Positions 1-48,686 of a stretch of DNA of 48,686 nt are shown here, in pieces. Source of the DNA: a virus (taxonomy: Duplodnaviria > Heunggongvirae > Uroviricota > Caudoviricetes); the IMG/VR virus record IMGVR_UViG_643348546_000001. One strand, given 5' to 3'. Numbering within the stretch: the first letter of the stretch is position 1; each line of letters starts with the position of its first letter. A model generated the notes under the pieces. That model worked only from the letters and a program-made list of their open reading frames with translations, made no database searches and had not been told where the DNA came from. The position numbers and the translations under genes are program-made.

Positions 1-1071
1 TTATTTGATTTCAATTTTGTCCCACTCCCTGCCTCTGTCATCACGATACTGTGATGCCATGGTGTCCGACTTATGCCCGAGAAGATGTTGAGCAAACTTA
101 TCGCTTATCTGCTTCTCATAGAGTCTTGCAGACAAACTGCGCAACTCGTGAAAGGTAGGCGGATCCCCTTCGAAGGAAAGACCTGATGCTTTTCGTGCGC
201 GCATAAAATACCTTGATACTGTGCCGGATGAAAGCGGTTCGCGACGAGTAGATGCAATTATGGTTTCTCCGCCAAGAATCTCTTTGCATTTATCAAGTGT
301 TTCCTTCATTGATATTCCGAGAGCATCAACATGCAATGCTGTTGGGATGGCAATTTTTACGCCTGTTTTGCTTTGCTCGACATAAAGATATCCATCTACG
401 ATATCAGACCACTTCATTTCGCATAAATCACCAACTCGTTGCCCGGTAACAACAGCCAGTTCCATTGCAAGTCTGAGCCAACATGGTAATGATTCTGCTG
501 CTTGATAAATTTTCAGGTATTCGTCAGCCGTAAGTCTTGATCTCCTTACCTCTGATTTTGCTGCGCGAGTGGCAGCGACAGGGTTTGTTGTTATATGGCC
601 TTCAGCTATTGCCTCTCGGAATGCATCGCTCAGTGTTGATCTGATTAACTTGGCTGACGCCGCCTTGCCCTCGTCTATGTATCCATTGAGCATTGCCGCA
701 ATTTCTTTTGTGGTGATGTCTTCAAGTGGAGCATCAGGCAGACCCCTCCTTATTGCTTTAATTTTGCTCATGTAATTTATGAGTGTCTTCTGCTTGATTC
801 CTCTGCTGGCCAGGATTTTTTCGTAGCGATCAAGCCATGAATGTAACGTAACGGAATTATCACTGTTGATTCTCGCTGTCAGAGGCTTGTGTTTGTGTCC
901 TGAAAATAACTCAATGTTGGCCTGTATAGCTTCAGTGATTGCGATTCGCCTGTCTCGGCCTAATCCAAACTCTTTACCCGTCCTTGGGTCCCTGTAGCAG
1001 TAATATCCATTGTTTCTTATATAAAGGTTAGGGGGTAAATCCCGGCGCTCATGACTTCGCCTTCTTCCCAT
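1..1071 (-). CDS. int: Tyrosine site-specific recombinase (integrase), lambda Int type
   Basis: 356-aa ORF; near-identical to remembered lambda Int along the whole length (N-terminal MGRRRSHERRDLPPNLYIRNNGYY, C-terminal HELRSLSARLYEKQ...LLGH...Y catalytic region). Confidence 0.97.
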   Translation of the reverse strand: MGRRRSHERRDLPPNLYIRNNGYYCYRDPRTGKEFGLGRDRRIAITEAIQANIELFSGHKHKPLTARINSDNSVTLHSWLDRYEKILASRGIKQKTLINYMSKIKAIRRGLPDAPLEDITTKEIAAMLNGYIDEGKAASAKLIRSTLSDAFREAIAEGHITTNPVAATRAAKSEVRRSRLTADEYLKIYQAAESLPCWLRLAMELAVVTGQRVGDLCEMKWSDIVDGYLYVEQSKTGVKIAIPTALHVDALGISMKETLDKCKEILGGETIIASTRREPLSSGTVSRYFMRARKASGLSFEGDPPTFHELRSLSARLYEKQISDKFAQHLLGHKSDTMASQYRDDRGREWDKIEIK

Positions 1072-1267
1072 TTCTGATCCTCTTCAAAAGGCTACCTGTT
1101 ACTGGTCGATTTAAGTCAACCTTTACCGCTGATTCGTGGAACAGATATTCTCTTCCATCCTTAACCGGAGGAGGGAATATCCTGCATTCGCGCACCCATC
1201 GACGAACTGTTTCAAGGCTTCTTGGGCGTCGCTGGCGAGCGTTCCACTCCTGAAGTGTCAAGTACAT
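1049..1267 (-). CDS. xis: Excisionase
   Basis: 72-aa ORF overlapping the int start as in lambda; sequence MYLTLQEWNARQRRPRSLETVRRWVRECRIFPPP matches lambda Xis. Confidence 0.95.
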   Translation of the reverse strand: MYLTLQEWNARQRRPRSLETVRRWVRECRIFPPPVKDGREYLFHESAVKVDLNRPVTGSLLKRIRNGKKAKS

Positions 1268-1561
1268 CGCAAAGTCTCCGCAATTACACGCAAGAAAAAA
1301 CCGCCATCAGGCGGCTTGGTGTTCTTTCAGTTCTTCAATTCGAATATTGGTTACGTCTGCATGTGCTATCTGCGCCCACAGCATCCAGTGGTCATAGCAG
1401 TCGCTGATGTTCTCGGCTTCGATAACTCTGTTGAATGGTTCTCCATTCTATTCACCTGTAACTCGGAAGTGCATTTATCATCGCCATAAAACAAAACTCG
1501 CCGTAGCGAGTTCAGATAAAAGAAAACCCGCATGACCTGCCCCCACGATTAGATACAACAC

Positions 1562-2395
1562 TCAGTTAGTAACGTCGGAATCTTCATTCTCAGAATGACC
1601 CTTTCTCCAGCCCGCTGCAAATTCAGACGGTGTCTGATAATTCAGCGTGGAGTGCGGGCGGCATTCGTTATAATCCTGCCGCCAGTCATTAATAATTTTC
1701 CTGGCATGAACGATATCGCTGAACCAGTGCTCATTCAAACATTCATCGCGAAATCGTCCGTTAAAGCTCTCAATAAATCCGTTCTGCGTTGGCTTGCCCG
1801 GCTGGATTAAGCGCAACTCAACACCATGCTCAAAGGCCCATTGATCCAGTGCACGGCAAGTGAACTCCGGCCCCTGGTCAGTTCTTATCGTCGCCGGATA
1901 GCCTCGAAACAGTGCAATGCTGTCCAGAATACGCGTGACCTGAACGCCTGAAATCCCAAAGGCAACAGTGACCGTCAGGCATTCCTTTGTGAAATCATCG
2001 ACGCAGGTAAGACACTTGATCCTGCGACCGGTGGAAAGTGCGTCCATGACGAAATCCATCGACCAGGTCAGATTGGGCGCCGCCGGACGGAGCAGCGGCA
2101 GACGTTCTGTTGCCAGCCCTTTACGACGTCTTCTGCGTTTTACGCCCAGGCCACTGAGGTGATAAAGCCGGTACACGCGCTTATGATTAACATGAAGCCC
2201 TTCACGGCGCAGCAACTGCCAAATACGACGGTAGCCAAAACGCCTGCGCTCCAGTGCCAGCTCAGTGATGCGCCCTGATAAATGCGCATCAGCAGCCGGA
2301 CGGTGAGCCTCATAGCGGCAGGTCGACAGGGATAAACCTGTAAGCCTGCAGGCACGACGTTGCGACAGACCGGTCGCATCACACATCAACATCAC
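1562..2395 (-). CDS. IS3-family transposase OrfB (DDE integrase-like catalytic domain)
   Basis: 277-aa ORF with a non-ATG (GTG) start; its frame is open upstream to about 2455 and overlaps the orfA end in the -1 frame, consistent with programmed frameshifting; DDE-type motifs ([15 protein letters not shown]). Confidence 0.85.
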
Positions 2396-2418
2396 GGCTT
2401 CCCGCTTCTGGTCTGTCG

Positions 2419-2682
2419 TCAGTACTTTCGCCCAAGAGCCACCTGAAGCGCCTCTTTATCCAGCATGGCTTCGGCAAGCAGCTTCTTGAGTCTGGCGTTC
2501 TCTTCCTCAAGCGACTTCAGGCGCTTAACTTCAGGCACCTCCATACCGCCATACTTCTTACGCCAGGTGTAAAACGTGGCATCGGAAATGGCATGCTTGC
2601 GGCAGAGTTCACGGGCGGGTACCCCAGCTTCGGCTTCGCGGAGAATACTGATGATCTGTTCGTCGGAAAAACGCTTCTTCAT
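2419..2682 (-). CDS. IS3-family transposase OrfA (HTH DNA-binding, leucine-zipper-like C-terminus)
   Basis: 87-aa ORF; HTH-like N-terminus and heptad leucines ([20 protein letters not shown]) typical of IS3-family OrfA. Confidence 0.85.
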
Positions 2683-2788
2683 GGGGATGTCCTCATGTGG
2701 CTTATGAAGACATTACTAACATCGGGGTGTACTAATCAACGGGGAGCAGGTCACGCACTCGGCGGGTTCGCATTCGTTCAAATTGCGT

Positions 2789-3070
2789 TTACTTCTTGGC
2801 GTTCTGTTCATCCATATCGATATACCATGGGTTGCTTCCCTTGGGCATGTTTAACGACTGCTCGCGATAGTATCTGATGCGCTCCATGAAATACTCGCGT
2901 GAGTGCTCAGGTTGCTCTCATGATACCTGCTCAGTGATAACAGGTATGTTAAGGCGCTCTCTGTACTCCATGCCTGATGCTGCAAGGTCAACGTTTACCT
3001 TGTTCTGTTTTTCTTTCGATTTCTCGGCGATGTTATGCCTGACATTGTCAACCCGCCTCCTTCTGAACAT
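2789..3070 (-). pseudogene. Small ORF (about 93 codons) interrupted by one in-frame TGA; divergent copy of the element at 15080-15328
   Basis: Translation [92 protein letters not shown]; aligns with the TGA-interrupted ORF at 15080-15328 but the stop lies at a different codon. Confidence 0.45.
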
Positions 3071-3332
3071 AACGGTTATAAATCAGTCCCTGAGGGCCAT
3101 AAGGAAGCGGGATGTGCAACTCCTCTGGTTCAGAAACTATCCATTCCCCGGCCATCTCCGCTGGAGAGGTAATGATAAGTTGTTTGCTAATAAAAGGACC
3201 ACTCCTCTCAACAACAAGCTTACCATCTTCATTAATAAAAGCTTGGATGTCAGGTGTGCTTCCACACTTGGTGATGCAGCGTTTGAACATTTTGTGTCCC
3301 CCCATTTTATGGACGGGGTAATTATAACACAT
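3048..3332 (-). CDS. Hypothetical protein (start uncertain)
   Basis: 94-aa ORF in the sense orientation of the leftward early operon; its C-terminus (NRYVQKEAG) resembles the C-terminus of the 250-aa protein at 14316-15068 (NNVYAPKKE). Confidence 0.3.
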   Translation of the reverse strand: MCYNYPVHKMGGHKMFKRCITKCGSTPDIQAFINEDGKLVVERSGPFISKQLIITSPAEMAGEWIVSEPEELHIPLPYGPQGLIYNRYVQKEAG

Positions 3333-3416
3333 TGAAATATAGTAATATTTGACGTAGATTTCTTTTGATCTATAAGCGATTTTTTAATGCTTTTAAGTTA
3401 TAAATACTTGTTTTCA

Positions 3417-3992
3417 TCACCCATCTTGCTGCGGTGCTACTATTGAAAAGTACTCACACCCTTTAGCCCAAATAGTTTTGATAGTTGTCCAACTGACTGG
3501 AACCTTGATTTCGATTCTTCCGCTGCCGTCACAAGTTTCGCAATCATCATCACCAAAGCATTCCGGGCAGCTTATAAACGTAGTTTCTGAAAATTCACCG
3601 GATAGCACACCCTTAGCGCCGTTCTCAGCGGTTAGTTTCTTCGGCACTATAACCCAACCATCCGGAGTTACCGGAGAGTTGCCATTTATATCGAAGTTTG
3701 GCTCTGCGTCCTGAACCAGGAGGATGTAACCATTCTTGGCAGTATCAAGTTCTAACGCCTCGGTGACGGTACCGAAATAGCGATTACCTAAATCCGCATC
3801 ACAAGTGCTTACATCAATGGAAACCTCCATGCCTTCGATTAATTCTGGCAAGTTGTAAGTTTGGCTTACAGGTTCTGCTCCCAGTGATGCCAGTGCAATT
3901 CGTGCCAGTTCCATTTGTTCGCCACGAGTAAGCCCGTTTTCAAGCGGATTTTTAATGAACAATTCAATACGTTCTTTGGTAATAGTGGTCAT
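3417..3992 (-). CDS. Hypothetical protein with C-terminal CxxC...CxxC zinc-ribbon-like motif
   Basis: 191-aa ORF in the leftward early operon; CPECFGDDDCETCDGSG near the C-terminus; no family recognised. Confidence 0.55.
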   Translation of the reverse strand: MTTITKERIELFIKNPLENGLTRGEQMELARIALASLGAEPVSQTYNLPELIEGMEVSIDVSTCDADLGNRYFGTVTEALELDTAKNGYILLVQDAEPNFDINGNSPVTPDGWVIVPKKLTAENGAKGVLSGEFSETTFISCPECFGDDDCETCDGSGRIEIKVPVSWTTIKTIWAKGCEYFSIVAPQQDG

Positions 3993-4002
3993 TTGTTAGT
4001 CC

Positions 4003-4758
4003 TTAAACTGCTAGTTGCAATTGCATTTCAAAGCGGTCGCGTTGTTCACAATACGCAAGAGAACCAGGGCTATTGTGTGCCTCAATCCGTTCTACCATTA
4101 ATGCTGCGCGTGTCTCTTTACTTGCAGGTGCATAAGCCCCAGACCAGGCTTTATCAATACCGATGTTTCGAGCGACGTTCGTACTATCTGCGCTGGCTAA
4201 GGGTAATTTTGTGAATATCAGCGGATTTAACATGCGCAATCCATGTAGTTTCGTAACCGGCTGACCATGCCCATCAACAATGTGACGAATCAGGTCTTTC
4301 ATTCTGGCTACCGCAAGAGTTGGGCGCTTTACGTCATAGTCGCCACAACTACCGATAGCCACTCGCGGAAACTCATTGCACAAATGAATAAATCGCTCGT
4401 CACTTTCATTCATGTGCCACACTGGAACGCCAGCTAGTTTTCCGTGAGGCCACTCATTCAGAAGCGCATCATTTTCCTCCTCTCCGCCATCAATAACATC
4501 CGGGATAATGGCAAAATCGAATCCTGGGTGATTCTTCCAGCGAGCAACAAAATCGTAGTAATCGCTCCAGTCGATTTTGTTTTTGCCAGCTGCTTTCCAG
4601 GCGGTGAATGCACCGTTGTCCAGCGCGAACGACTGACAGTATTCAGCCGCGAGATTGATCTGGCCTGAATGCGCAAAACTGATAAACGCATGTCGCCCTT
4701 TCCATGCTCTCATTGCGCACGTATCAGGAGTAATAGGCCCACCGTGGTAGTGAATCAT
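4003..4758 (-). CDS. Hypothetical protein (251 aa from the RBS-supported start)
   Basis: ORF 4003-4800; the internal ATG at 4758 is preceded by AAGGAG and sits 1 nt after the upstream gene's stop, so that start is preferred; no family recognised. Confidence 0.55.
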   Translation of the reverse strand: MIHYHGGPITPDTCAMRAWKGRHAFISFAHSGQINLAAEYCQSFALDNGAFTAWKAAGKNKIDWSDYYDFVARWKNHPGFDFAIIPDVIDGGEEENDALLNEWPHGKLAGVPVWHMNESDERFIHLCNEFPRVAIGSCGDYDVKRPTLAVARMKDLIRHIVDGHGQPVTKLHGLRMLNPLIFTKLPLASADSTNVARNIGIDKAWSGAYAPASKETRAALMVERIEAHNSPGSLAYCEQRDRFEMQLQLAV

Positions 4759-4759
4759 C

Positions 4760-5167
4760 TCACTCTCCTTTGATGCGAATGCCAGTAGCGCGGATTGCAT
4801 CGATGACTTCAGAAACTTTGTATGCCATTACCGTTTGGTAATCATCGTGAAAATCTGTTCGATGAAGCATGCTGCTACGTTCCGGGAGCAGTATTTCCCG
4901 CGCTTCCAATTCTGCAATGCGCTTTTTTGCTGCTTCCAGTGCATCCAGTAATTCCAGCACGGTAGCCGGATTAGCCTTGGCAACAAAATCCCGGACTGGC
5001 TTACAATCAATCTCCGCAATGGGTTGATACGATGTGTAGCCATGCTGTCTTGTATAACTACCGTGACGAATAACGAAAAAATCACCATTTATTTTTTTAG
5101 CCTGCCACTTATCTTCACCGGCTTTCTCTGCCGCTTCACGCAGTGCCTGAGAGTTAATTTCGCTCAC
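4760..5167 (-). CDS. Ea22-like protein (C-terminal Ead/Ea22 domain)
   Basis: 135-aa ORF; PATVLELLDALEAAKKRIAELEA and the C-terminal GIRIKGE match the remembered lambda Ea22 C-terminal region. Confidence 0.65.
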   Translation of the reverse strand: MSEINSQALREAAEKAGEDKWQAKKINGDFFVIRHGSYTRQHGYTSYQPIAEIDCKPVRDFVAKANPATVLELLDALEAAKKRIAELEAREILLPERSSMLHRTDFHDDYQTVMAYKVSEVIDAIRATGIRIKGE

Positions 5168-5385
5168 TTCGAACCTCTCTGTTTACTGATAAGCTCCAGA
5201 TCTTGCTGGCAACTGGCACAAGTCCGACAACCCTGAACGGCCAGTCGTCTTCGTTCATCTATCGGATCGCCACACTCACAACAATGAGTGGCAGATATAG
5301 CCTGGTGGTTCAGGCGGCGCATTTTTATTGCTGTGTTGCGCTGTAATTCTTCAATTTCTGATGCTGAATCAATTATGTCTGCCAT
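5164..5385 (-). CDS. DksA/TraR-family C4 zinc-finger protein
   Basis: 73-aa ORF with CCECGDPIDERRRLAVQGCRTCASC (CxxC-N17-CxxC); near-identical to the lambda gene at the same position. Confidence 0.8.
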   Translation of the reverse strand: MADIIDSASEIEELQRNTAIKMRRLNHQAISATHCCECGDPIDERRRLAVQGCRTCASCQQDLELISKQRGSK

Positions 5386-5483
5386 CTTTCATTAATCCCT
5401 GAATTGTTGGTTAATACGCTTGAGGGTGAATGCGAATAATAAAAAAGGAGCCTGTAGCTCCCTGATGATTTTGCTTTTCATGT

Positions 5484-5699
5484 TCACCGTTCCTTAAAGA
5501 CGCCGTTCAACATGCCGATCGCCAGGCTTAAATGAGTCGGTGTGAATCCCATCAGCGTTACCGTTTCGCGGTGCTTCTTTAGTACGCTACGGCAAATGTC
5601 ATCGACGTTTTTATCCGGAAACTGCTGTCTGGCTTTTTTGATTTCAGAATTAGCCTGACGGGCAATGCTGCGAAGGGCGTTTTCTTGCTGAGGTGTCAT
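5484..5699 (-). CDS. Lambda orf61-like small protein
   Basis: 71 aa from the ATG at 5699 (MTPQQENALRSIARQANSEIKKARQQF...); lambda-like position and sequence. Confidence 0.6.
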   Translation of the reverse strand: MTPQQENALRSIARQANSEIKKARQQFPDKNVDDICRSVLKKHRETVTLMGFTPTHLSLAIGMLNGVFKER

Positions 5700-5775
5700 T
5701 GAACAAGCCCCATGTCGGCAAGCATAAGCACACAGAATATGAAGCCCGCTGCCAGAAAAATGCATTCAGTGGTTG

Positions 5776-5967
5776 TCATACCTGGTCTCTCTCATCTGCT
5801 TCTGCTTTCGCCACCATCATTTCCAGCTTTTGTGAAAGGGATGTGGCTAACGTATGAAATTCTTCGTCTGTTTCTACTGGTATTGGCACAAACCTGACTC
5901 CAATTTGAGCAAGGCTATGTGCCATCTCAATACTCGTTCTTAACTCAACAGGAGATGCTTTGTGCAT
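5776..5967 (-). CDS. Lambda orf63-like protein (DUF1391 family)
   Basis: 63-aa [26 protein letters not shown]...; matches the lambda orf63 family. Confidence 0.65.
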   Translation of the reverse strand: MHKASPVELRTSIEMAHSLAQIGVRFVPIPVETDEEFHTLATSLSQKLEMMVAKAEADERDQV

Positions 5968-6128
5968 ACCGTCTCCCGTTTATTATTTATCTTCTCAGCC
6001 AGCCGCTGTGCTTTCAGTGGATTTCTGATAACAGAAAGGCCGGGAAATACCCAGCCTCGCTTCTTAACGGAGTAGACGAAAGTGATCGTGCCTACGCGGA
6101 TATTATCGTGAGGATGTTTCATCGCCAT
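5940..6128 (-). CDS. Lambda orf60a-like small protein
   Basis: 62-aa [34 protein letters not shown]... immediately downstream of exo in the early-left operon. Confidence 0.6.
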
Positions 6129-6799
6129 TGCTCCCCAAATACAAAACCAATTTCAGCCAGTGCCTCGTCCATTTTTTCGATGAACTCCGGCACCATCTCG
6201 TCAAAACTCGCTATATACTTTTCATTCCGCTCAATCACGACATAATGCAGGCCTTCACGCTTCATACGCGGGTCATAGTTGGCAAAGTACCAGGCATCTT
6301 TTCGCGTCACCCACATGCTGTACTGCACCTGGGCCATGTAAGCCGACTTTATGGCCTCGAAACCACCGAGCCGGAATTTCATGAAATCCCGGGAGGTAAA
6401 CGGGCATTTCAGCTCAAGGCCATTGCCGTCACTGCATAAACCATCGGGAGAGCAGGCGGTGCGCATACTTTCGTCGCGATAGATGATCGGGGATTCAATA
6501 ACATTTACGCCGGAAGTGAACTCAAACAGGGTTCTGGCGTCGTTCTCGTACTGTTTTCCCCAGGCCAGCGCTTTAGCGTTAACTTCCGGAGCCACACCGG
6601 TGCAAACCTCAGCTAGCAGGGTGTGGAAGTAGGACATTTTCATGTCAGGCCACTTCTTTCCTGATCGGGGCTTTGCTATCACGTTGTGAACTTCTGAAGC
6701 GGTGATGACGCCGAGCCGTAATTTGTGCCATGCATCATCCCCCTGTTCGACAGCTCTCACGTCGATCCCGGTACGCTGCAGGATAATGTCCGGTGTCAT
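6119..6799 (-). CDS. exo: Lambda exonuclease (Red alpha)
   Basis: 226-aa ORF near-identical to lambda Exo ([40 protein letters not shown]...). Confidence 0.97.
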
Positions 6800-7581
6800 G
6801 CTGCCACCTTCTGCTCAGTGGCTTTCTGTTTCAGGAATCCAAGAGCTTTCACTGCTTCGGCCTGTGTCAGTTCTGACGATGCGCGAATGTCGCGGCGAAA
6901 TATCTGGGAACAGAGCGGCAATAAGTCGTCATCCCATGTTTTATCCAGGGCGATCAGCAGAGTGTTAATCTCCTGCATGGTTTCATCGTTAACCGGAGTG
7001 ATGTCGCGTTCCGGCTGACGTTCTGCAGTGTATGCAGTATTTTCGACAATGCGCTCGGCTTCATCCTTGTCATAGATACCAGCAAATCCGAAGGCCAGAC
7101 GGGCACACTGAATCATGGCTTTATGCCGTAACATCCGTTTGGGATGCGACTGCCACGGTCCGGTGATTTCTCTGCCTTCGCGGGTTTTGAATGGTTCGCG
7201 GCGGCATTCATCCATCCACTCGGTAACGCAGATCGGATGATTGCGGTCTTTGCGGTAAATCCGGCATGTGCAGGATTCGTTGTCCTGTTCAAAGTCCATG
7301 CCGTCAAACTGCTGGTTTTCGTTGATGATGCGGGACCAGCCATCAACGCCCACCACCGGAACGATGCCGTTCTGCTTATCAGGGAAGGCGTAAATTTCTT
7401 TCGTCCACGGATTAAGGCCGTACTGGTTGGCGACGATCAACAATGCGATGAACTGCGCATCGCTGGCATCACCTTTAAATGCTGTCTGGCGAAGAGTGGT
7501 GATCAGTTCCTGTGGGTCGACAGAATCCATGCCGACACGTTCAGCCAGCTTCCCAGCCAGCGTTGCGAGTGCTGTACTCAT
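6796..7581 (-). CDS. bet: Recombination protein Bet (Red beta, single-strand annealing)
   Basis: 261-aa ORF near-identical to lambda Bet; 4-nt overlap with exo. Confidence 0.97.
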
Positions 7582-7586
7582 CCGTT

Positions 7587-7883
7587 TTATACCTCTGAAT
7601 CAATATCAACCTGATGGTGAGCAATGGTTTCAACCATGTACCGGATGTGTTCTGCCATGCGCTCCTGAAACTCAACATCGTCATCAAATGCACGGGTAAT
7701 GGCTTTTTTGCTGGCCCCGCAGCGTTGTAAATGATCGATGCAGAGCGATTCAAACAAATGCTGGGGCAGGCCTTTTTCCATGTCGTCTGCCAGTTCTGCC
7801 TCTTTCTCTTCACGGGCGATCTGCTGGTAGTGACGCGCCCAGCTCTGAGCCTCAAGACGATCCTGAATGTAATAAGCATTCAT
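7587..7883 (-). CDS. gam: Host-nuclease (RecBCD) inhibitor Gam
   Basis: 98-aa ORF matching lambda Gam ([21 protein letters not shown]...VDIDSEV); the lambda upstream extension (MDINTET...) is absent. Confidence 0.95.
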
Positions 7884-7959
7884 GGCTGAACTCCTGAAAA
7901 TGGCTGTGAAAATATCGCCCGCGAAATGCCAGGCTGATTAGGAAAACAGGAAAGGGGGG

Positions 7960-8250
7960 TTAGTGATTCAGGCCGTTACCGCGTCCGTCGAGAAAAACTT
8001 CCACGAGCAAATCACGGGTATAAGTGCGCTCGATGCCGCGATGCAGATAAAGCCGTCCGCGTAAATTAGCTGATGCAGTCCAGGTACCATCTTTGTGTTT
8101 GACCAGCATTCCTGGCATGACCGCACCTCGATTAACGGTCTGCGTTCCGTAATGTTGATGAACCATAAAAACTCCTGCCCGTAAGCTGGGCTGCTGAACA
8201 TATAAAGACTTCTGCGCGTATTCAGGCGGTGGATGGCCGCCGGTTGTCAT
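7960..8250 (-). CDS. Hypothetical protein at the kil/cIII position (start uncertain)
   Basis: ORF 7960-8370 begins with TTG; first ATG at 8250 gives 96 aa (MTTGGHPPPEYAQ...GRGNGLNH); C-terminus differs from lambda Kil (...SKSIH). Confidence 0.35.
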   Translation of the reverse strand: MTTGGHPPPEYAQKSLYVQQPSLRAGVFMVHQHYGTQTVNRGAVMPGMLVKHKDGTWTASANLRGRLYLHRGIERTYTRDLLVEVFLDGRGNGLNH

Positions 8251-8439
8251 AACTAAGCCGCCTCGTTGAAGCGACTGAGGTATGAAGTGTTGAGTTGATT
8301 TCAGCTGGTCACACCGACGTTCACGCGTCCGCTTCACCCCTCGCACTCCCCGGAGCCTGCTGAAATTCAAGCTGCGGATCTAAGCGGTCATCGCAACGGT
8401 GAATCAGGTGATTGCCGTATCGTTGTGTTGTTGCGACAT

Positions 8440-8500
8440 GGTGATAATAGCTATTGCTATTGATGATATCAATACTTATTGCTATTGCTAGATGTGTTTT
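8440..8500 (-). promoter_or_regulatory. Putative PL promoter with operator repeats (OL)
   Basis: On the minus strand: -35 TTGATA, 17-nt spacer TCATCAATAGCAATAGC, -10 TATTAT; spacer and flanks carry the TTGCTATTGCT / TAGC-N4-GCTA motifs also found in the cI-cro intergenic region. Confidence 0.55.
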
Positions 8501-8644
8501 GATATTAAATATTTGATAGCAAAAAGAATTAATTTTGTGACTTGCATCGCATAGCGATAACTGAAGCGGGGTTGTGGTGGTTTTTTGAACGGTGTGTGTG
8601 ATGAGGGGAGGCAAAAGAAAACCCGGCACGGTGGCCGGGACGTT

Positions 8645-9157
8645 TTATTTCAAAGAAAAATTATGACTAGCGTATCTTGGAAGAAATTCATATAGTGTTA
8701 ATGTCTTAACGCCGTGAGAAGCAGCCGCATCCGGGATCATTATTCTTTTTTTAGGTTTGCCACCGGATGGTTTCTCATGGGTAATAATAGTATATCCATG
8801 TGTCATCGCATGGGCTATTAAAAAAGCATCTGCTTTTTCATGGCTTGCAAAATCAAACTTTGCCTTTTCGGTAACATCTAATTTAGTTGACCAATTTATT
8901 AACTTTGCATAATTTTCTATTGAACTATGCTCATCTTCGAAGAATGATGATGGTAACTCTTCTTTAATCCATTTACACAATGGATCATCTTTTGCACATA
9001 GTTCTTTTTTTACAGCATTAATGCTATAAATCAGACCATTAATGTGTAAAGCGAGAAGAAAATCCCAAAATATTTTGCAATAATTGAAGTTATATGCAAA
9101 GTTTTTTGCCTCTATGAAGACATTACTATCAATTAAGAATTTTCCATTATGAATCAT
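8645..9157 (-). CDS. PIN-like nuclease-fold protein (DUF4411-like), predicted toxin/effector
   Basis: 170-aa ORF; N-terminal FLIDSNVFIE and later acidic/Thr positions (ADAFLIAHAMTHGYTIITHEK) fit a PIN-like pattern; overlaps the upstream gene's stop by 4 nt; very AT-rich. Confidence 0.6.
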   Translation of the reverse strand: MIHNGKFLIDSNVFIEAKNFAYNFNYCKIFWDFLLALHINGLIYSINAVKKELCAKDDPLCKWIKEELPSSFFEDEHSSIENYAKLINWSTKLDVTEKAKFDFASHEKADAFLIAHAMTHGYTIITHEKPSGGKPKKRIMIPDAAASHGVKTLTLYEFLPRYASHNFSLK

Positions 9158-10293
9158 AGAGATTCTCGTTTTTTATAAAATTCAACAACTGTATCTGCTT
9201 TTACATTTAGCAGTACGCCTGCTTCCCTTAATGGTAATTGTTGAGACATTGCTTTGGAAATTATTATATTCGTAAGTTTTGGACTGTTACGAACAGGTAA
9301 TGTGTTAAAGAAAGAACCACCATTAGATTCTTTTTTGGGCTTATTGTAAGCTTGATCTTTAATTATCTCCAAAGTGTTTCTTTCTATCAAATCTAATTGT
9401 AACGCTTTGATTGCACAAGCGAAATCACTAACCTTAAATAACTTAGAAACCTCTTTTACTCGATAATAATTATTATCGCTGGATGCATTAAGCCAGAAAG
9501 ATTTGAAGAGATTATCAGGCATTAAGATTTCAGCAGCAACTTTATTACAAAAAGATTCTATGTTTTTTTCTGTGTCCCACCCAGAGACTCCATCGACTCC
9601 AAGCCAAAGATGAGCCACCTCATGAAATAATGTAAATACCTGCGCAGATAACGCGTCCGAGCTATTTACAAAAATGATCGGAGCAACGCTATCAGATATA
9701 CAGAAACCACGAAACTCTCGCGTGTCAAGTTTTCTTTTATTATTATTACCCACAACACCATTCTTGAAAACTAATACGCCAGTGTCTTCTATTAATTTTG
9801 CCACTTTAGAAAAATAGCTCTCAAAAGTGACATTTTTTATCTCTTTTTGTATATCAAAATGTATTGTGTTTGCTATGTCTGTAGCAACAACCTTATAATT
9901 TAATTTTCTATTAAATTTAAATTTACCAATAAAATCGAGTGGATCATCATTACCATTTTCTCTTAAATAGTCTTTGTACCACTCAAGTTTATATTCTATA
10001 TCATAGTAAACATCAAAAAAATCTTTTCCTAACTCACGGCTATTTATAGCTTGCCTTAAGTCAGGGATCTTGGGTTTGGCTGGAGTTGGTGGCGTTTCAA
10101 GAAATAAAAAACCGAAAGGGATTCCTCCAATTTTTGCCAGTTTTTCTGCTGCGGATTTACTTACCACTCCGTTAAGAAATTTATTAATCTTTTTGGGCAT
10201 GACTTGGTCAGCAAGAGTTTCGATAGAAACTCCTTGAGAATTTGCTATCCAATCAATCATCTTCCTAGACAATTGAAATTCAACCGCTGCCAT
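9154..10293 (-). CDS. HTH-domain / ImmA-IrrE-family (COG2856-like) zinc metallopeptidase protein
   Basis: 379-aa ORF; HExxH motif (FHEVAHLWLG) in the middle, HTH-like N-terminal segment; AGGTGA RBS 4 nt before the ATG; very AT-rich. Confidence 0.65.
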   Translation of the reverse strand: MAAVEFQLSRKMIDWIANSQGVSIETLADQVMPKKINKFLNGVVSKSAAEKLAKIGGIPFGFLFLETPPTPAKPKIPDLRQAINSRELGKDFFDVYYDIEYKLEWYKDYLRENGNDDPLDFIGKFKFNRKLNYKVVATDIANTIHFDIQKEIKNVTFESYFSKVAKLIEDTGVLVFKNGVVGNNNKRKLDTREFRGFCISDSVAPIIFVNSSDALSAQVFTLFHEVAHLWLGVDGVSGWDTEKNIESFCNKVAAEILMPDNLFKSFWLNASSDNNYYRVKEVSKLFKVSDFACAIKALQLDLIERNTLEIIKDQAYNKPKKESNGGSFFNTLPVRNSPKLTNIIISKAMSQQLPLREAGVLLNVKADTVVEFYKKRESL

Positions 10294-10422
10294 GTTATCA
10301 CCTAGTTAAAAAAAACTATTATTCAACAATTATTGTTGTGCACCTGATAGCTAACGTCAAGCCTAATTTATTGCCTTACTACAGTAAGCTGAAAAGCGAA
10401 GTGCATAATTTTGTTCTGATTT

Positions 10423-11115
10423 CTACCCATGCTTTCTATATGTCTGCGGCATGCTCCCGATGACTTTCCCGAAGATGAACACGCGGTTCATCTCGTCTTT
10501 CTCGATCGGGTCCCACGGTGAGTAGCTCTTGTTATCAGAGATAACCAGCAGCTTATCCTTCATCATTTGCAGGCGTTTTACATGGGCGGTGTCGTCATAC
10601 AGAAACGCATAGATACCATCACCGTCGAAAGATTTAACCGTGATATCAACGAACAGCAGATCACCTGGTTCGATCGTTCCTGACATGCTGTCACCACGCA
10701 CGTTAATGATGCGGATATTTTCCGCCTTCCTGCCATCGAACATGTGACGAGCATCGTCAAACGAGTATTCAACCGAGCGTAGAACTTCTACAAACTCACG
10801 GTTGATTACACCCGGCCCGGCACTGACTTCTATATCAAGAACGTCAATTTTGAAGTATTTGGAATGGCTGACAGCAGGCTTCCCTGATTGTTGACCGTCA
10901 TTTCTCATCGGGCCTATGCCTGAAGAGAGCCATTCTGTTCGAACACCCAATGCATTAGCTATTTCAACAATTTTTGTTGAGCCGCGCGCGTTGCCGCTTG
11001 TCAGTCTCCAGATTGTGGGTTGAGCTACGCCAGACGCCTTTGCAAGAGCGCCTTGAGACATTCCAGATTGTTCCATCGCTAGATTTAAGCGATCAGCAAG
11101 AGTTTCTTTTTTCAT
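10423..11115 (-). CDS. cI: CI-like prophage repressor (HTH + S24 LexA-like autopeptidase domain)
   Basis: Start assigned to the ATG at 11115 (the longer ORF starts with TTG); N-terminal HTH (LADRLNLAMEQSGMSQGALAKASGVAQPTIWRL), C-terminal Ser/Lys dyad context (RGDSMSGTIEPGDLLFVD ... KRL); not lambda cI by sequence; mRNA appears leaderless from PRM. Confidence 0.85.
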   Translation of the reverse strand: MKKETLADRLNLAMEQSGMSQGALAKASGVAQPTIWRLTSGNARGSTKIVEIANALGVRTEWLSSGIGPMRNDGQQSGKPAVSHSKYFKIDVLDIEVSAGPGVINREFVEVLRSVEYSFDDARHMFDGRKAENIRIINVRGDSMSGTIEPGDLLFVDITVKSFDGDGIYAFLYDDTAHVKRLQMMKDKLLVISDNKSYSPWDPIEKDEMNRVFIFGKVIGSMPQTYRKHG

Positions 11116-11225
11116 AAGTTTTAATTTATACGCTTGCGTATTGATGGTCAAAACACGTTTTGCTATTGCTTGGATTAATACGCATTGCTATTATTCATTC
11201 ATTGCAATACCAATAGGAATTGATA
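11116..11225. promoter_or_regulatory. Divergent PRM/PR promoters with operator repeats (OR)
   Basis: PR (plus strand): -35 TTGCTT 11166-11171, 17-nt spacer, -10 TATTAT 11189-11194. PRM (minus strand): -35 TTGACC (11144-11149), 17-nt spacer, -10 TAAATT (11122-11127), placing the transcript start about at the cI ATG. Palindrome TACGCTTGCGTA 11129-11140 and TTGCTATTGCT-type repeats. Confidence 0.6.
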
Positions 11226-11453
11226 ATGACAAATCAAACCATTCAACTCGCAATCAGTATTACAGGCAGTCAAAAACGACTGGCAGATCTATGCGGTGTA
11301 GCCCAACCCACAGTTTGGCGTTGGCTACACGGTGGCGGAATTGATGCCCGCTATGTAATGAAAATTGTCTCAGCCACTGGTGGAAAGATTAAACCAGCAG
11401 ATATTCGTCCCGACCTCGCACCATTGTTTAACGCGAGTAATTCTGCCGCCTAA
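11226..11453 (+). CDS. cro: Cro/YdaS-like HTH regulator
   Basis: ATG at 11226 after AGGA; HTH-like QKRLADLCGVAQPTVWRWLHGG; first gene of the rightward operon opposite the repressor. Confidence 0.8.
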   Translation: MTNQTIQLAISITGSQKRLADLCGVAQPTVWRWLHGGGIDARYVMKIVSATGGKIKPADIRPDLAPLFNASNSAA

Positions 11454-11477
11454 ACTGCGGCGTTAACTGATAAGGCA

Positions 11478-12023
11478 ATGACTATGCAACCACTTACATA
11501 CCAACAGACTAGCGGATTTAGCCCGACTGCGGTGATAAATCGTTCTCAAACAAAACAGGTGGCAGGCCACGAAAAAATCCGTGATGCCGTCCGCGCCTGG
11601 TCGGCTGTAGATAATCAGGATGTCGTTGCCACACTCATTGTGAATGAGTATCGGGAGCAGGGCGGCGGCACCATCGATTTCCCTGATGATGTCAGCCGTG
11701 CACGCCAGAAGCTGTTCCGCTTCCTCGATAACAAATTCGATTCTGAAAAATACCGAAATAACGTGCGTGAACTGACCCCGGCAATTCTGGCGGTACTACC
11801 GCTGGAATATCGCGGTTACCTGGTTGAGCAGGATAGCTTCATGGCTAGGTTGGCTGAAATGGAAAAGGAACTCAGTGAGGCAAAACAGGCTGTCATTCTC
11901 AACGCACCACGCCACCAGAAACTGAAGGAAATTAGTGAAGGTATTGTATCGATGTTTCGTGTGGACCCAGATCTGGCTGGTCCATTGATGGCGATGGTTA
12001 CTACCATGCTGGGGGCGATATGA
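11478..12023 (+). CDS. YdaT-family protein (CII-position regulator)
   Basis: 181-aa ORF; NEYREQGGG...RELTPAILAVLPLEYR parallels remembered Rac YdaT (EEYLRQGGG...QKLIPAILAILPRELR). Confidence 0.6.
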   Translation: MTMQPLTYQQTSGFSPTAVINRSQTKQVAGHEKIRDAVRAWSAVDNQDVVATLIVNEYREQGGGTIDFPDDVSRARQKLFRFLDNKFDSEKYRNNVRELTPAILAVLPLEYRGYLVEQDSFMARLAEMEKELSEAKQAVILNAPRHQKLKEISEGIVSMFRVDPDLAGPLMAMVTTMLGAI

Positions 12024-45484: not shown

Positions 45485-45760
45485 TATCCTTCAAGCCCTG
45501 AAGGAGGCTGTTCCTGGTACGTTCAGACTGTTGCTGAGCTGGAGATCGCAACGGAGGAAGAGACATCGTTACTGACGGCATGGAAGACATATCGGGTGTT
45601 GCTGAACAGTGTTGATACATCAGTAGCACCGGATATTGAATGGCCAGTAGCACCTATAGGGTAAATTCGTAATGATTACCTAAATACGTTATTCTTTTGT
45701 TAAAAAAGTGATTTTGCTATAGGTAGGGAGTATGTTCTTGGATTAAGAATAAAAAATCGC

Positions 45761-45790
45761 CATGAAAGAGCTTCATGGCGAGTACATAAA
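45761..45790 (-). terminator. Putative intrinsic terminator (minus strand)
   Basis: 9-bp stem CGCCATGAA / TTCATGGCG with a 5-nt loop, followed on the minus strand by ATTTTTTATT. Confidence 0.4.
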
Positions 45791-46524
45791 CGTACAAAAT
45801 GTGATGAAAGTAGAGTGGCGTAAGCCACAATATTAAGATATGACAATAGCGAAGAAAAGTAAATAACATTTTATGGACGTTTAATTGTTAATTATAAAAA
45901 CTAGAGTGCCCGATATTGTTTATCTTGCTTTAAAATAATGTACTCAAACCAAATTTTTGAGCTAAAAGCTCAAATAATATAAATGCAATGATAATGTTTA
46001 ATAAGACAATTAGCTTGCTTTGTATTTTCATTTCGGAATACTGTTAAGTAACTTTGATGATCCTAACAATAGATCGGAATTTTCTTAGAGTCAATGGTCA
46101 CTGTTTTTGCTTGCAAAGCAAATGTTTTGGTGGTTATAAGTTGTCTTAATATAGTCACGCATGCAACTTGTTCCATGCGGAGATTAAAGATTGGAATATA
46201 ACGCGAAGATGGAATTAAATTACATTTGCAATAATCAATTTATTATTACTCAATAATTACCGATATTATTATTGTAAATTAATCATTAGAGTGCAAAAAG
46301 AAATGTAACGGCAAAATAAGAGGACGATAGCTGAGAAAAAAGCGTGCTTTCCCAATCTGGGGCAAATCACGTCTGAATGACACCTGAAAACAGGTGGTAG
46401 CCTCAAGAAGGCTTGGAATATTCTTCTTTAATGTTATGTAATTCATTGATTTTTCGTGTACAATTTTAAGACATTTATTCCAAGAGAAATTTTTAACTCT
46501 TTGATTTTTCGACTCTGTATCATC

Positions 46525-46585
46525 GGTCTCGAAAACCGGAGTAGGGGCAACTCTACCGGGGGGTCAAATCCCCCTCTCTCCGCCA
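46525..46585 (+). other. 3' segment (about 61 nt, anticodon stem to CCA-proximal end) of a tRNA-Ser gene, with one T-loop substitution; probable integration-site remnant
   Basis: GGTCTCGAAAACCGGAGTAGGGGCAACTCTACCGGGGGGTCAAATCCCCCTCTCTCCGCCA matches the remembered 3' two-thirds of E. coli serU (CGA anticodon) except GGGGGTTCAAATC to GGGGGGTCAAATC; the 5' acceptor/D-arm is absent. Confidence 0.7.
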
Positions 46586-47169
46586 CTTTATCAATGACTT
46601 ATCTCCCGACTTCCCGCCTTGCTTTTCCTAAACAGAACAATCGTAGAATATTCTTGAAGGGTTAGATCGTCACTGTTTTCTGTTCGATACTGTGACATTC
46701 AGCACTTGATTCGCTATGGATCTGACAGGAAGGTTTTGAGCGAAAATTTGCAGTTATTCAGTCGTTTTCTTATCGGTCACCATTATTCTTTTAGACATTG
46801 ATCCTACAAAGCTGCCGCAAAGTTGGTGGTGGGAACTGAAGTTGCGTAGAGAAGGGGTCAATACCCGGAGGCAAACATGGGCTGGCAAAAGTGTAGCGGT
46901 ATTAGGCGCAGCTATTTAGCCTAGTTATGTTTTATGAAAACTTGATATCATATAAGTGTCTTACTTATTGGCTGTAAATAAGTTTTTCCTAAGGAATTGT
47001 TTCTTGAGTATCATTTGTAACTGTAACGGAATTTATAATCCTTTGCTTTATTGTTACGGTATTTTTTATTACACCCTATTTTTTATGTGGTTTTTTATAC
47101 TGACGTTTGGCAAAGTGAACTTTATATGCATATACTTCATCCTGGTTTCAGTTAAGTTGGGTGGATGAT

Positions 47170-47913
47170 ATGGCAACTACATGTTCAGTTATATTGATTT
47201 TGGAGTCCTTTGATGTTTATTTCGGAAAAGAGAGTGTGTTTCTGGAGAGAGGTTCATCTGTACTTGTCGACTCTAGCTCTAGAGATTTTTTCCTGACATA
47301 TCCTGAAAGAGTGATAGTGGCGGATTTTGGCGCTGAGTTTATTAGTCGCTATTTGAAAGCTAATAACTTAAGGGATATTTCTGATTGTAGGGAATATCCA
47401 TCTTATTTAAAAATAAACTTTGCTGACTTCAGTTTAATTAAAGGATTAATTAGTTGGGCTAATCACTGTGCTGAATACATAGAAATTTTTGATGAGTCTA
47501 TTGCTTTTACATGTCTCTCTGCATTTTCTTCTGAAAAACAATTTGGAGTATTTCTGTTTGAATGTTTGAAAAGCACAGAGGCTAAAGTTAAAACGATTAT
47601 TCATACGGATTTATCTGCACCATGGCGTCTTAAGGATATATCATCAAGATTATATCTCAGCGAAAGTTTACTAAAGAGGAAATTGAAAGAAGAGGGGGTA
47701 TCATTCAGTAAGATCATACTTGATGAAAGGATGCAAATGGCTGAATATTTACTCAGCACTCGTTGTTATCCTATTAGTAAAGTAGCTAAGGTCTGTGGTT
47801 ATGCCAGTGTCTCATACTTTACTTATGTATTTAGACGTTATTTTGGTGTTTCTCCAAGTCAATACTCTCAGAGGAGTTCAGAAAGTAAAATTCTTACTCA
47901 CCAGGGAATCTGA
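47170..47913 (+). CDS. AraC/XylS-family transcriptional regulator (AppY/EnvY-like; AT-rich, horizontally acquired)
   Basis: ORF 47161-47913, ATG at 47170 preferred (GGTGGA RBS); C-terminal double HTH typical of AraC family (SKVAKVCGYASVSYFTYVFRRYFGVSPSQY); AT-rich codon usage. Confidence 0.85.
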   Translation: MATTCSVILILESFDVYFGKESVFLERGSSVLVDSSSRDFFLTYPERVIVADFGAEFISRYLKANNLRDISDCREYPSYLKINFADFSLIKGLISWANHCAEYIEIFDESIAFTCLSAFSSEKQFGVFLFECLKSTEAKVKTIIHTDLSAPWRLKDISSRLYLSESLLKRKLKEEGVSFSKIILDERMQMAEYLLSTRCYPISKVAKVCGYASVSYFTYVFRRYFGVSPSQYSQRSSESKILTHQGI

Positions 47914-47954
47914 TCATTGTTCTTGCCCCCTTATTTCCAGACAGGGGGTGTATC

Positions 47955-48420
47955 TTAAGTTAACGTTACCCGCTGACGTCGATATTCTCGCGGAGAGCGA
48001 TAACCCAACGCACTGTGCGGATGGTTTTCATTGTAATGATCGATCGCCACTGCAAGATTATGCAATGCCGTTCTTACATTCGGTTTCGGCATGAACGCGA
48101 TGTAGTCTTCCTTCATCGTTTTCACGAACCTTTCTGCCATTCCATTACTCTGAGGACTGCTGATTGCCGTTGTGCAGGGCTCCAGATTCAACTCTCTGGC
48201 GAACTGCCATGTTTCATGCGCTCTATACGCTGAACCGTTATCTGTCAGCCACTGGATGGACTGTTCCGGTACTTTATCGCCAAAGCGTTTTTCTATCGCT
48301 CCTAACATGACATCCTGCACTGTCGCTTTATCGTAACCTCCCGTGCTTGCGGCCCAGTCTATGGCTTCACGATCGCAACAGTCCAGGGCGAACGTAACAC
48401 GCAGTTTTGAATCGCCACGG
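47955..48420 (-). pseudogene. 5'-truncated IS3-family (IS2-group-like) transposase OrfB fragment
   Basis: C-terminal DDE-domain segment ([14 protein letters not shown]...[11 protein letters not shown]...[14 protein letters not shown]) resembles remembered IS2 InsD; similarity continues upstream of the first Met to about 48420 with no start codon. Confidence 0.75.
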
Positions 48421-48464
48421 GTTTAACAGACACCTCAGAGTCATTTAAGATGGCTTAAAGAGAG

Positions 48465-48686
48465 GTGCCCATGAGCGGTAAGCGTTATCCCGAAGAGTTT
48501 AAAACTGAAGCAGTCAAACAGGTTGTTGATCGCGGTTATTCTGTTGCCAGCGTTGCAACACGTCTCGATATCACCACCCACAGCCTTTATGCCTGGATAA
48601 AGAAGTACGGTCCGGATTACTCCACTTTTTCATCAAGCCAATCCGCCCACCACTGCATCATTTCTCTGCGCTTATCGAGATACTGA
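48465..48686 (+). pseudogene. IS3-family transposase OrfA, probably disrupted after about 50 codons
   Basis: N-terminal HTH region MSGKRYPEEFKTEAVKQVVDRGYSVASVATRLDITTHSLYAWIKKYGPD is typical of IS3-family OrfA; the remaining about 20 residues are atypical and end at the window edge. Confidence 0.6.

Follow-up and report, generated by a model that had tools for sequence, protein, structure and literature searches.

A serU tRNA-Ser fragment inside a lambda-like Escherichia coli prophage is probably the core of a fossil attR site

Results

The prophage occupies the classical lambda site

The window (the whole 48,686-nt stretch of DNA analysed here) starts with a lambda-type integration module and runs out, at its right edge, in the 3' end of another integrase gene. 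The features on which the analysis turns are as follows.

1..1267, minus strand: integration module in actual use, with lambda-type int (1-1071, 356 aa) and xis (about 1049-1267).
45522..46523, plus strand: phage-side arm (P-arm side) of a serU-type att site, a 97.1% match to the serU attR of ETEC1732.
46524..46585, plus strand: putative fossil att core, the 3' 62 nt of serU with T to G at 46563; no functional tRNA.
46586..46863, plus strand: captured bacterial chromosome, 278 bp of the serU-yodB spacer (attR B' side), in contiguous alignment with K-12 (L002 4063-4340).
46863..46864, no strand: novel joint where chromosomal homology stops, ...GGGGTCAATA / CCCGGAGG...
47170..47913, plus strand: AraC-family regulator gene, 247 aa, with the Pfam domains HTH_AraC and HTH_18.
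47955-48407, minus strand: C-terminal fragment of an IS3-family orfB, by alignment transfer from the RefSeq annotation of identical STEC313/Res13 DNA.
48471-48617, plus strand: N-terminal fragment of an IS3-family orfA, by the same transfer from STEC313/Res13.
48613..48686, minus strand: 3' end (C-terminal codons) of an HK620/IntS-type integrase gene, running off the window edge, ~95% identity.

The 356-aa Int carries the Pfam domains Arm-DNA-bind_1 (lambda integrase) and Phage_integrase. STEC313 is 100% identical to the window over positions 1-12000 except for one insertion sequence (IS), and its left side reads ybhC, a perfect lambda core GCTTTTTTATACTAA and the P' arm, with the core 74 bp before window position 1, which is the int stop codon. 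On the right side, near-identical genomes continue through lambda sib, a diverged P arm, the core ACTTTTTTATACTAA 225 bp past 48686 and the B' arm, and then enter ybhB-bioA-bioB. The whole window thus lies within a prophage that occupies the classical lambda site (ybhC to ybhB/bio), and the tRNA fragment at 46524-46585 sits about 2.3 kb inside it. No lambda core had been seen by the original prediction and the window indeed holds none, but this absence is an artefact of the window cut, which leaves one core outside each edge. The prediction also proposed a check for an integrase gene beyond the right edge; there is none, only ybhB, bioA and bioB. The fragment was correctly judged not to be the attR of the prophage with the lambda-type Int: lambda att sites flank the window, and the fragment bears no likeness to the lambda core, as either the attP or the attR of this prophage would.

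The only near-match to the lambda core within the window, GGTTTTTTATACTGA at 47089-47103, lies 67 bp upstream of the AraC start codon. We considered it as a secondary lambda att site and rejected it; it has two mismatches and no arm similarity, 4 of 100 shuffled sequences match as well, and it is probably due to chance. Three independent IMG/VR prophage contigs (L035, L038 and L045) end exactly at the last base of the window, 225 bp before the attR core. The shared end base looks like a systematic boundary set by a prophage caller that trims off the att sites.

Two further observations concern IS elements in this prophage family. A 1221-bp IS3-family insertion sequence at 1533-2753, with a 4-bp target duplication, is absent from the STEC313 prophage. 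It contains an Rfam IS1222 frameshift element (2335-2452, minus strand) and lies in an intergenic position downstream of xis, leaving int and xis intact. The prophage of MLI110 at attB-lambda (L001 1-7600) is truncated: an IS5 connects its lysis genes with ompC, elaD and yfbK. These three genes lie about 1.5 Mb from attB-lambda on the K-12 map, implying a large prophage- or IS-mediated rearrangement.

A 3' segment of serU without a functional tRNA

The plus strand at 46524-46585 reads CGGTCTCGAAAACCGGAGTAGGGGCAACTCTACCGGGGGGTCAAATCCCCCTCTCTCCGCCA and corresponds to positions 29-90, the 3' 62 nt, of the E. coli serU gene for tRNA-Ser(CGA). It runs from the CGA anticodon loop and the 3' strand of the anticodon stem through the variable and T arms to the 3' acceptor strand and CCA, and it lacks the 5' acceptor strand and the D arm. 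The original prediction had described just such a partial tRNA-Ser with a CGA anticodon and without the 5' acceptor strand and D arm; the match proves to be 62 nt long and begins one base further left, at 46524. The T-loop substitution that it reported is also there: a T to G change at 46563, with GGTCAAATC replacing GTTCAAATC, is the sole mismatch to K-12 serU.

ARAGORN finds no tRNA gene in the whole window. Rfam reports no tRNA in the window at its gathering threshold, and none on 46350-46750 at E<=1. The segment therefore does not form the complete cloverleaf that tRNA finders recognise in a functional tRNA-Ser gene, and the idea that it is an intact tRNA with a misread 5' half is rejected on the results of both programs. 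The DNA to the left of 46524 is a phage arm and not the 5' half of serU.

The match does not stop at the end of the tRNA. A blastn alignment of 46524-46863 to the K-12 serU locus, from tRNA position 29 to 278 bp downstream of the gene, spans 340 nt at 97.1% identity (E = 2.6e-164), and a query of 46330-46800 is matched by 5404 of 5426 complete E. coli genomes, mostly at an annotated tRNA-Ser. A similarity of this length and significance is nothing that chance would produce, and the structure recurs in dozens of independent complete genomes, three phage isolates and 29 viral contigs, which speaks against an assembly artefact. Either reading is refuted, and we give them practically no credence.

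The left arm is the right end of a serU prophage

The DNA on the left of the fragment identifies the kind of phage that it came from. The arm at 45522-46523 consists of the 3' remnant of a tail-fibre-assembly (tfa) gene (about 45533-45664), annotated as such at the corresponding locus of Res13-Lact-EB12-05 (L004), followed by ~860 bp of AT-rich non-coding DNA. This DNA includes an 18-nt direct repeat at 46439 and 46494 that is a candidate protein-binding site. From 45522 to 46863 the window is collinear with strain ETEC1732 (L003 5193-6534) at 97.1% identity, through tfa, arm, partial tRNA and host flank. ETEC1732 is a genuine serU lysogen in which mtfA is followed by an intact serU, an integrase, ~42 kb of phage, tfa, the arm, the 62-nt partial tRNA and yodB; the integrase is a tyrosine recombinase of 341 aa encoded 52 bp downstream of the intact serU. 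The same 62-nt pseudo-tRNA-Ser is annotated beside yodB in the GenBank entry of 'phage SerU-LTIIb' (KU052038), and serU is a recognised integration site of lambdoid phages in STEC (PMC7067040).

Comparison of the two ends of the ETEC1732 prophage also places the crossover. The tRNA at attL has a phage-type compensatory pair in its variable arm, whereas attR and the window have the host type (AGTAGGGG...CTCTACC). The crossover therefore lies within the anticodon stem-loop, and nearly all of the fragment in the window is consequently host-derived and continuous with the host flank.

The window thus reproduces each part of an attR. Identity to serU begins at tRNA position 29, in the anticodon stem. 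The fragment's left neighbour is the phage arm that genuine serU lysogens also have (97% to the right end of the ETEC1732 prophage); its right neighbour is chromosomal DNA from downstream of serU, in a match that ends at 46863 after 278 bp. The element's other end, however, has neither an attL or intact serU nor a cognate integrase. A tblastn search of the window for serU-type integrases recovered none, the sole match being the lambda Int at 22% identity. With no partner attL and no cognate integrase, the site is to be read as a fossil and not as an active attR.

A piece of chromosome ends at a novel joint

The captured flank is a natural allele. The 340 nt from 46524 to 46863 are 98.8% identical to the native serU locus of strain WB61, and this WB61-like allele points to the background of the donor. 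For the same reason, the seven flank substitutions that every relic copy shares do not prove that the capture happened once, as they occur in a natural allele at native serU (in strains such as WB61). Some E. coli lineages lack yodB altogether; in WB61 (L050 1763-2433) serU is directly followed by zinT. The spacer downstream of serU is therefore polymorphic. We also asked whether the flank carries a regulatory terminator or promoter and rejected this, because on the relevant strand the search found no more than shuffled sequences would give.

Both K-12 and WB61 read on past +278 as ...TCAATA/ATTGAG..., and the window departs from them at 46863/46864. The 32-mer that spans this joint, GAGAAGGGGTCAATACCCGGAGGCAAACATGG, connects bacterial DNA to non-adjacent DNA, the novel joint expected of a transduction-type capture. 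Every copy of the cassette has this joint, which occurs in about 555 complete E. coli genomes and 29 IMG/VR contigs. A chimeric query found the AraC segment within about 1.4 kb of the remaining serU-yodB spacer or of yodB in none of the 5426 complete E. coli genomes; an AraC island farther away than this, or confined to lineages outside the sample, would have escaped the query. The common ancestry of the cassette copies rests on the shared joint, the AraC gene and the IS scar. A 13-nt likeness between the T-loop and the joint-spanning DNA was noticed and treated as chance.

In one strain, GPEC1031 (L009 about 5232-6001), an IS1 replaces the equivalent of window positions 46414-46963; the relic, the flank and the joint are gone and the AraC gene is kept. 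This loss is consistent with a dispensable relic.

An AraC-family regulator, IS scars and a second integrase remnant

Beyond the joint, the window encodes a regulator that is probably an orthologue of PatE (Z0321) from the O157:H7 prophage CP-933H, a moron that travels as cargo with the relic. The window protein falls into one 90% cluster with the AraC protein of the O157:H7 Sp1/CP-933H type. Z0321 is described as 'putative regulator (prophage CP-933H), OI-8' (PMC2907692) and is called patE in a second paper, which describes AraC regulators of the PatE/Psr type as prophage-borne (PMC10877973). We base the identification on locus context and these two papers, as opposed to a direct comparison with the Z0321 sequence.

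The two IS3-family fragments follow. The last 74 positions of the window (48613-48686) are ~95% identical to the 3' end of int from phages of the HK620, CUS-3 and IME10 type; the match in HK620 covers positions 47-119, and its int is annotated at 50-1207 on the minus strand. This segment is a relic of a further integration module, placed between the IS3 orfA fragment and lambda sib.

Several possible homes of the AraC module were considered and rejected. Among 185,579 species-representative genomes there is no close AraC homologue, only a 37% partial match in Oscillibacter, which argues against a native home in another species. An original position beside the attP of a serU phage (P' side) is contradicted by the attL sides of both serU-phage families, neither of which resembles the DNA right of the joint. 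An origin of the module at the serU locus itself found no match in the chimeric-query test described above (0/5426).

The cassette is carried by phages and is an orphan in its hosts

The last 3.2 kb of the window (45500-48686) are 98.7-98.9% identical in the phage genomes PhiR70_1, mEp332 and ev099. Free ev099 phage DNA carries the cassette in the middle of the genome. Rightward from there come sib, the P arm, a perfect GCTTTTTTATACTAA, the P' arm, int and xis, which places an intact lambda attP about 2.3 kb to the right of the cassette. One of these phages, mEp332, forms plaques and has lambda immunity (PMC3442831). Packaged phage DNA of ev099, mEp332 and PhiR70_1 thus holds host DNA contiguous with a hybrid att site, as a transduction-type capture would require. 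Phage genomes hold the fragment next to an intact lambda attP; it therefore arrived with the phage and did not form at ybhC/ybhB. The original prediction had called it the footprint of a tRNA-targeted integration. Such an integration does leave a partial 3' tRNA-Ser, and this part of the claim stands; the footprint was not made at this locus.

Res13-Lact-EB12-05 carries, at 3.089 Mb, a relic identical to that of the window, including the T to G change. The native mtfA-serU-yodB locus of this strain, 1.25 Mb away at 1.840 Mb, is intact and empty and has the opposite orientation, and the two copies differ at 9 of 340 positions. A second tRNA-Ser copy within about 100 kb, on which the idea of a local footprint depended, is therefore not there; in this genome with the identical relic, the intact serU is distant and empty. 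The relic with its flank (L004 6195-6534) and serU (L019 40355-40444) form 340-bp inverted repeats that span the terminus region of Res13-Lact-EB12-05, and recombination between them could invert a large part of the chromosome.

The arm, relic and flank occur together in 829 complete genomes, and only about 96 of these go on into the AraC gene. The cassette has two contexts. In that of the window, a lambda-like tail-fibre arm lies to the left and the lambda attP to the right. In the other, the left arm belongs to an e14-like phage with a contractile tail (pinE, GIY-YIG) and a P4-like integrase element lies to the right; this is the Sp1/CP-933H-Sp2 region of O157:H7, near ykgJ/yagU/pao. From att core to IS scar, window positions 46524-48391 are 99.1% identical to the O157:H7-type locus (L008 8825-10690), where the left junction lies 4 nt deeper in the tRNA (GACC). 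A complete 39.5-kb prophage with this second type of arm resides at native serU in MB15. It holds three hypothetical genes between attL and int (L051 9183-11434), a cargo slot on the P' side. Plasmid carriage of the cassette was rejected, as the matches were unplaced O157 chromosomal contigs with the Sp1/Sp2 region. The relic is unmarked in the annotated records of the lambda-att and O157 contexts that we inspected.

The T-loop of the relic is variable

The substitution at 46563 is lineage-specific and one state of a variable site. Relic copies in STEC313, ev099 and PhiR70_1 have the wild-type T-loop, those of MLI110 and O157:H7 have two T to G changes, and in some copies the G-run is one base shorter. 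All of these states (wild type, one T to G, two T to G and the contraction by one G) are found on both left-arm backgrounds. The variable tract is the G-run on the 5' side of the T-stem at 46558-46564, where GGGGGTT changes to GGGGGGT, GGGGGGG or GGGGTT, recurring on independent backgrounds. This pattern indicates recurrent mutation at the G5-TT boundary in sequence that is free of tRNA constraint. We infer that homopolymer slippage or dislocation by the polymerase caused the changes in the G-run, and the T to G change at 46563 may thus have come about because the T-arm G-run is a mutational hotspot in a drifting relic.

Discussion

A fossil attR and alternative readings

We conclude, with a probability of roughly 0.8, that the fragment, flanked by a phage arm and a bacterial arm, forms the core of a complete attR that phages integrating at serU left as a fossil, and that a lambda-like phage now carries this site as inert cargo. 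The original prediction had placed the fragment at the boundary of the AraC/IS region on its right or of an older island. A partial 3' copy of a tRNA gene is indeed the classical signature of an island boundary, and the AraC/IS segment is AT-rich and foreign-looking. The anatomy speaks otherwise: the parent element lies on the left (45522-46523) and not on the right, 278 bp of serU-flanking chromosome separate the fragment from the AraC segment, and the ybhC/ybhB-bio locus has neither a serU gene nor its 5' half. The same arrangement exists in free phage DNA, and native serU is intact 1.25 Mb away. By these genome comparisons, the reading as attL or attR of a separate local element is refuted, and we consider it very improbable.

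The origin of the AraC module also admits another view, in which a chromosomal islet once lay 278 bp downstream of native serU and the joint is the boundary of its insertion. Prophages at serU would then have gained the 3' end of the gene together with flank, AraC gene and IS through larger aberrant excisions or IS recombination, possibly more than once. Such a history would fit a region that is polymorphic, with WB61 lacking yodB, and has IS3-family scars on the right of the AraC gene, and it would explain without any exchange of arms why two different serU phages share the same flank and AraC gene. Yet the AraC segment is joined to the relic in all contexts examined and never to an intact serU, the 5426 complete E. 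coli genomes hold no case of it within about 1.4 kb of the spacer remainder or yodB, and a close homologue is missing from the 185,579 species-representative genomes. Regulators of the PatE/Psr type are, moreover, prophage-borne (PMC10877973). We regard the islet as improbable.

A different objection concerns the inertness of the site, since the phage arm and core are still 97% like functional attR sites. The relic could be a live recombination site: a phage resident in the same host, or infecting it at the same time, could supply a serU-type Int (alone or with Xis) that passes the cassette between unrelated phages. This would account for an identical cassette (99.1%) behind two left arms, one of a lambda-like siphovirus and one e14-like, that each start at the att core and both derive from genuine serU-integrating phages at native serU; the T-loop changes, too, fall outside the presumed crossover region. 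Homologous recombination in the 62-340 nt shared with a native attR or serU would give the same swap of arms, however. An active shuttle should also scatter the cassette, which is found in just two stable contexts among 29 viral contigs and about 555 genomes, and the cassette has no linked cognate integrase. A live site strikes us as unlikely, though it is the alternative that we would take most seriously. The more specific proposal that integrases of serU phages still act on the fossil attR, and have moved the flank-patE cassette between a lambda-like siphovirus and an e14-like myovirus, is more doubtful still. If true, a captured att site would be a portable docking point through which prophages exchange virulence-regulator cargo.

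How the fossil attR may have arisen

For the origin of the fossil attR we favour, with somewhat better than even odds, a transduction-like capture that was followed by replacement of the integration module. We read the capture from its end product, so the mechanism of excision and the order of events are given here conditionally. An ancestral temperate phage would have integrated into the serU tRNA-Ser gene. In a serU lysogen with a WB61-like flank allele, imprecise excision of the lambda-bio kind, or an equivalent illegitimate recombination, would have linked the host sequence at 278 bp past attR to other DNA and fixed the hybrid attR with its flank in the phage. The capture may at the same time have destroyed or removed the serU-type attP/int. 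Other integration modules would have rescued the lineage, one of the HK620/IntS type first and the lambda-type module now, and IS elements would have taken part in the joints. The relic would now occupy the non-essential 'b-region' of a lambda-like phage, where it has presumably no present tRNA function and drifts.

The tail of an IntS-type int and the IS scars between the cassette and the lambda sib/attP support such a turnover of integration modules. A simple excision of the lambda-bio kind predicts early-left genes after the joint. The DNA past the joint holds the AraC gene, IS scars and a foreign attP instead, and an account of this kind would need no fewer than two additional rearrangements. 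A parent for the DNA beyond the joint was sought, without success, near the spacer in the 5426 E. coli genomes, in the 185,579 species genomes and on the attL sides of serU phages.

Relation to known att sites and transducing phages

Fossil att sites, captured host DNA and module swapping in mosaic lambdoid phages are phenomena of a known kind. The attR of a serU prophage, as in KU052038 and STEC, shares with the window the 62-nt partial tRNA-Ser, the phage arm that follows tfa and the chromosomal sequence to the right. The copy in the window differs in lying away from serU, without attL, intact tRNA or cognate integrase, and its bacterial arm ends after 278 bp inside the genome of another phage. 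An attP with a tRNA 3' segment is also known from Klebsiella and Citrobacter phages, whose genomes likewise contain roughly 60-80 nt of a tRNA-Ser 3' end. In a true attP, phage DNA lies to either side and integration restores the tRNA, whereas the window copy has bacterial chromosome on its right and no adjacent integrase. The chromosome on the right therefore makes it an attR-type site and not an attP.

Specialised transducing phages offer the closest parallel. Lambda bio and lambda gal carry a hybrid att site and adjoining host DNA that ends in a novel joint, in a packageable genome that has lost the original int/att function. The cassette of the window has the build that established lambda genetics ascribes to imprecise excision. 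In contrast to lambda bio and gal, its captured piece is tiny (278 bp, no gene), and it is an ancient structure, widespread in natural phages and known from its end structure, as opposed to a laboratory product. Past its joint come an AraC moron, IS scars and a foreign attP-int in place of the phage's own early-left genes. The patE (Z0321) region of CP-933H/Sp1 (O-island 8) in O157:H7 has the 99.1% similar segment from att core through flank, joint and AraC gene to IS scar. It is unlike the window in its e14-like left arm, the junction 4 nt deeper in the tRNA, the P4-like integrase on the right and the two T to G changes.

Implications

The fossil attR leaves the current view of phage biology unchanged. 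In practical terms, partial tRNA copies in prophages call for a check of both flanks before an island boundary is called, and prophage callers have trimmed this element to a position just inside its true att sites. The cassette is a clear natural case of a hybrid att site with a piece of bacterial chromosome that is kept in viable, circulating lambda-like phages and in O157:H7, and it is the type of scar expected from specialised-transduction-like excision. Within one phage lineage it would record the serial replacement of integration modules, from serU-type through HK620/IntS-type to lambda-type. The regulator gene that travels linked to this scar is probably patE, a regulator of acid resistance and the LEE.
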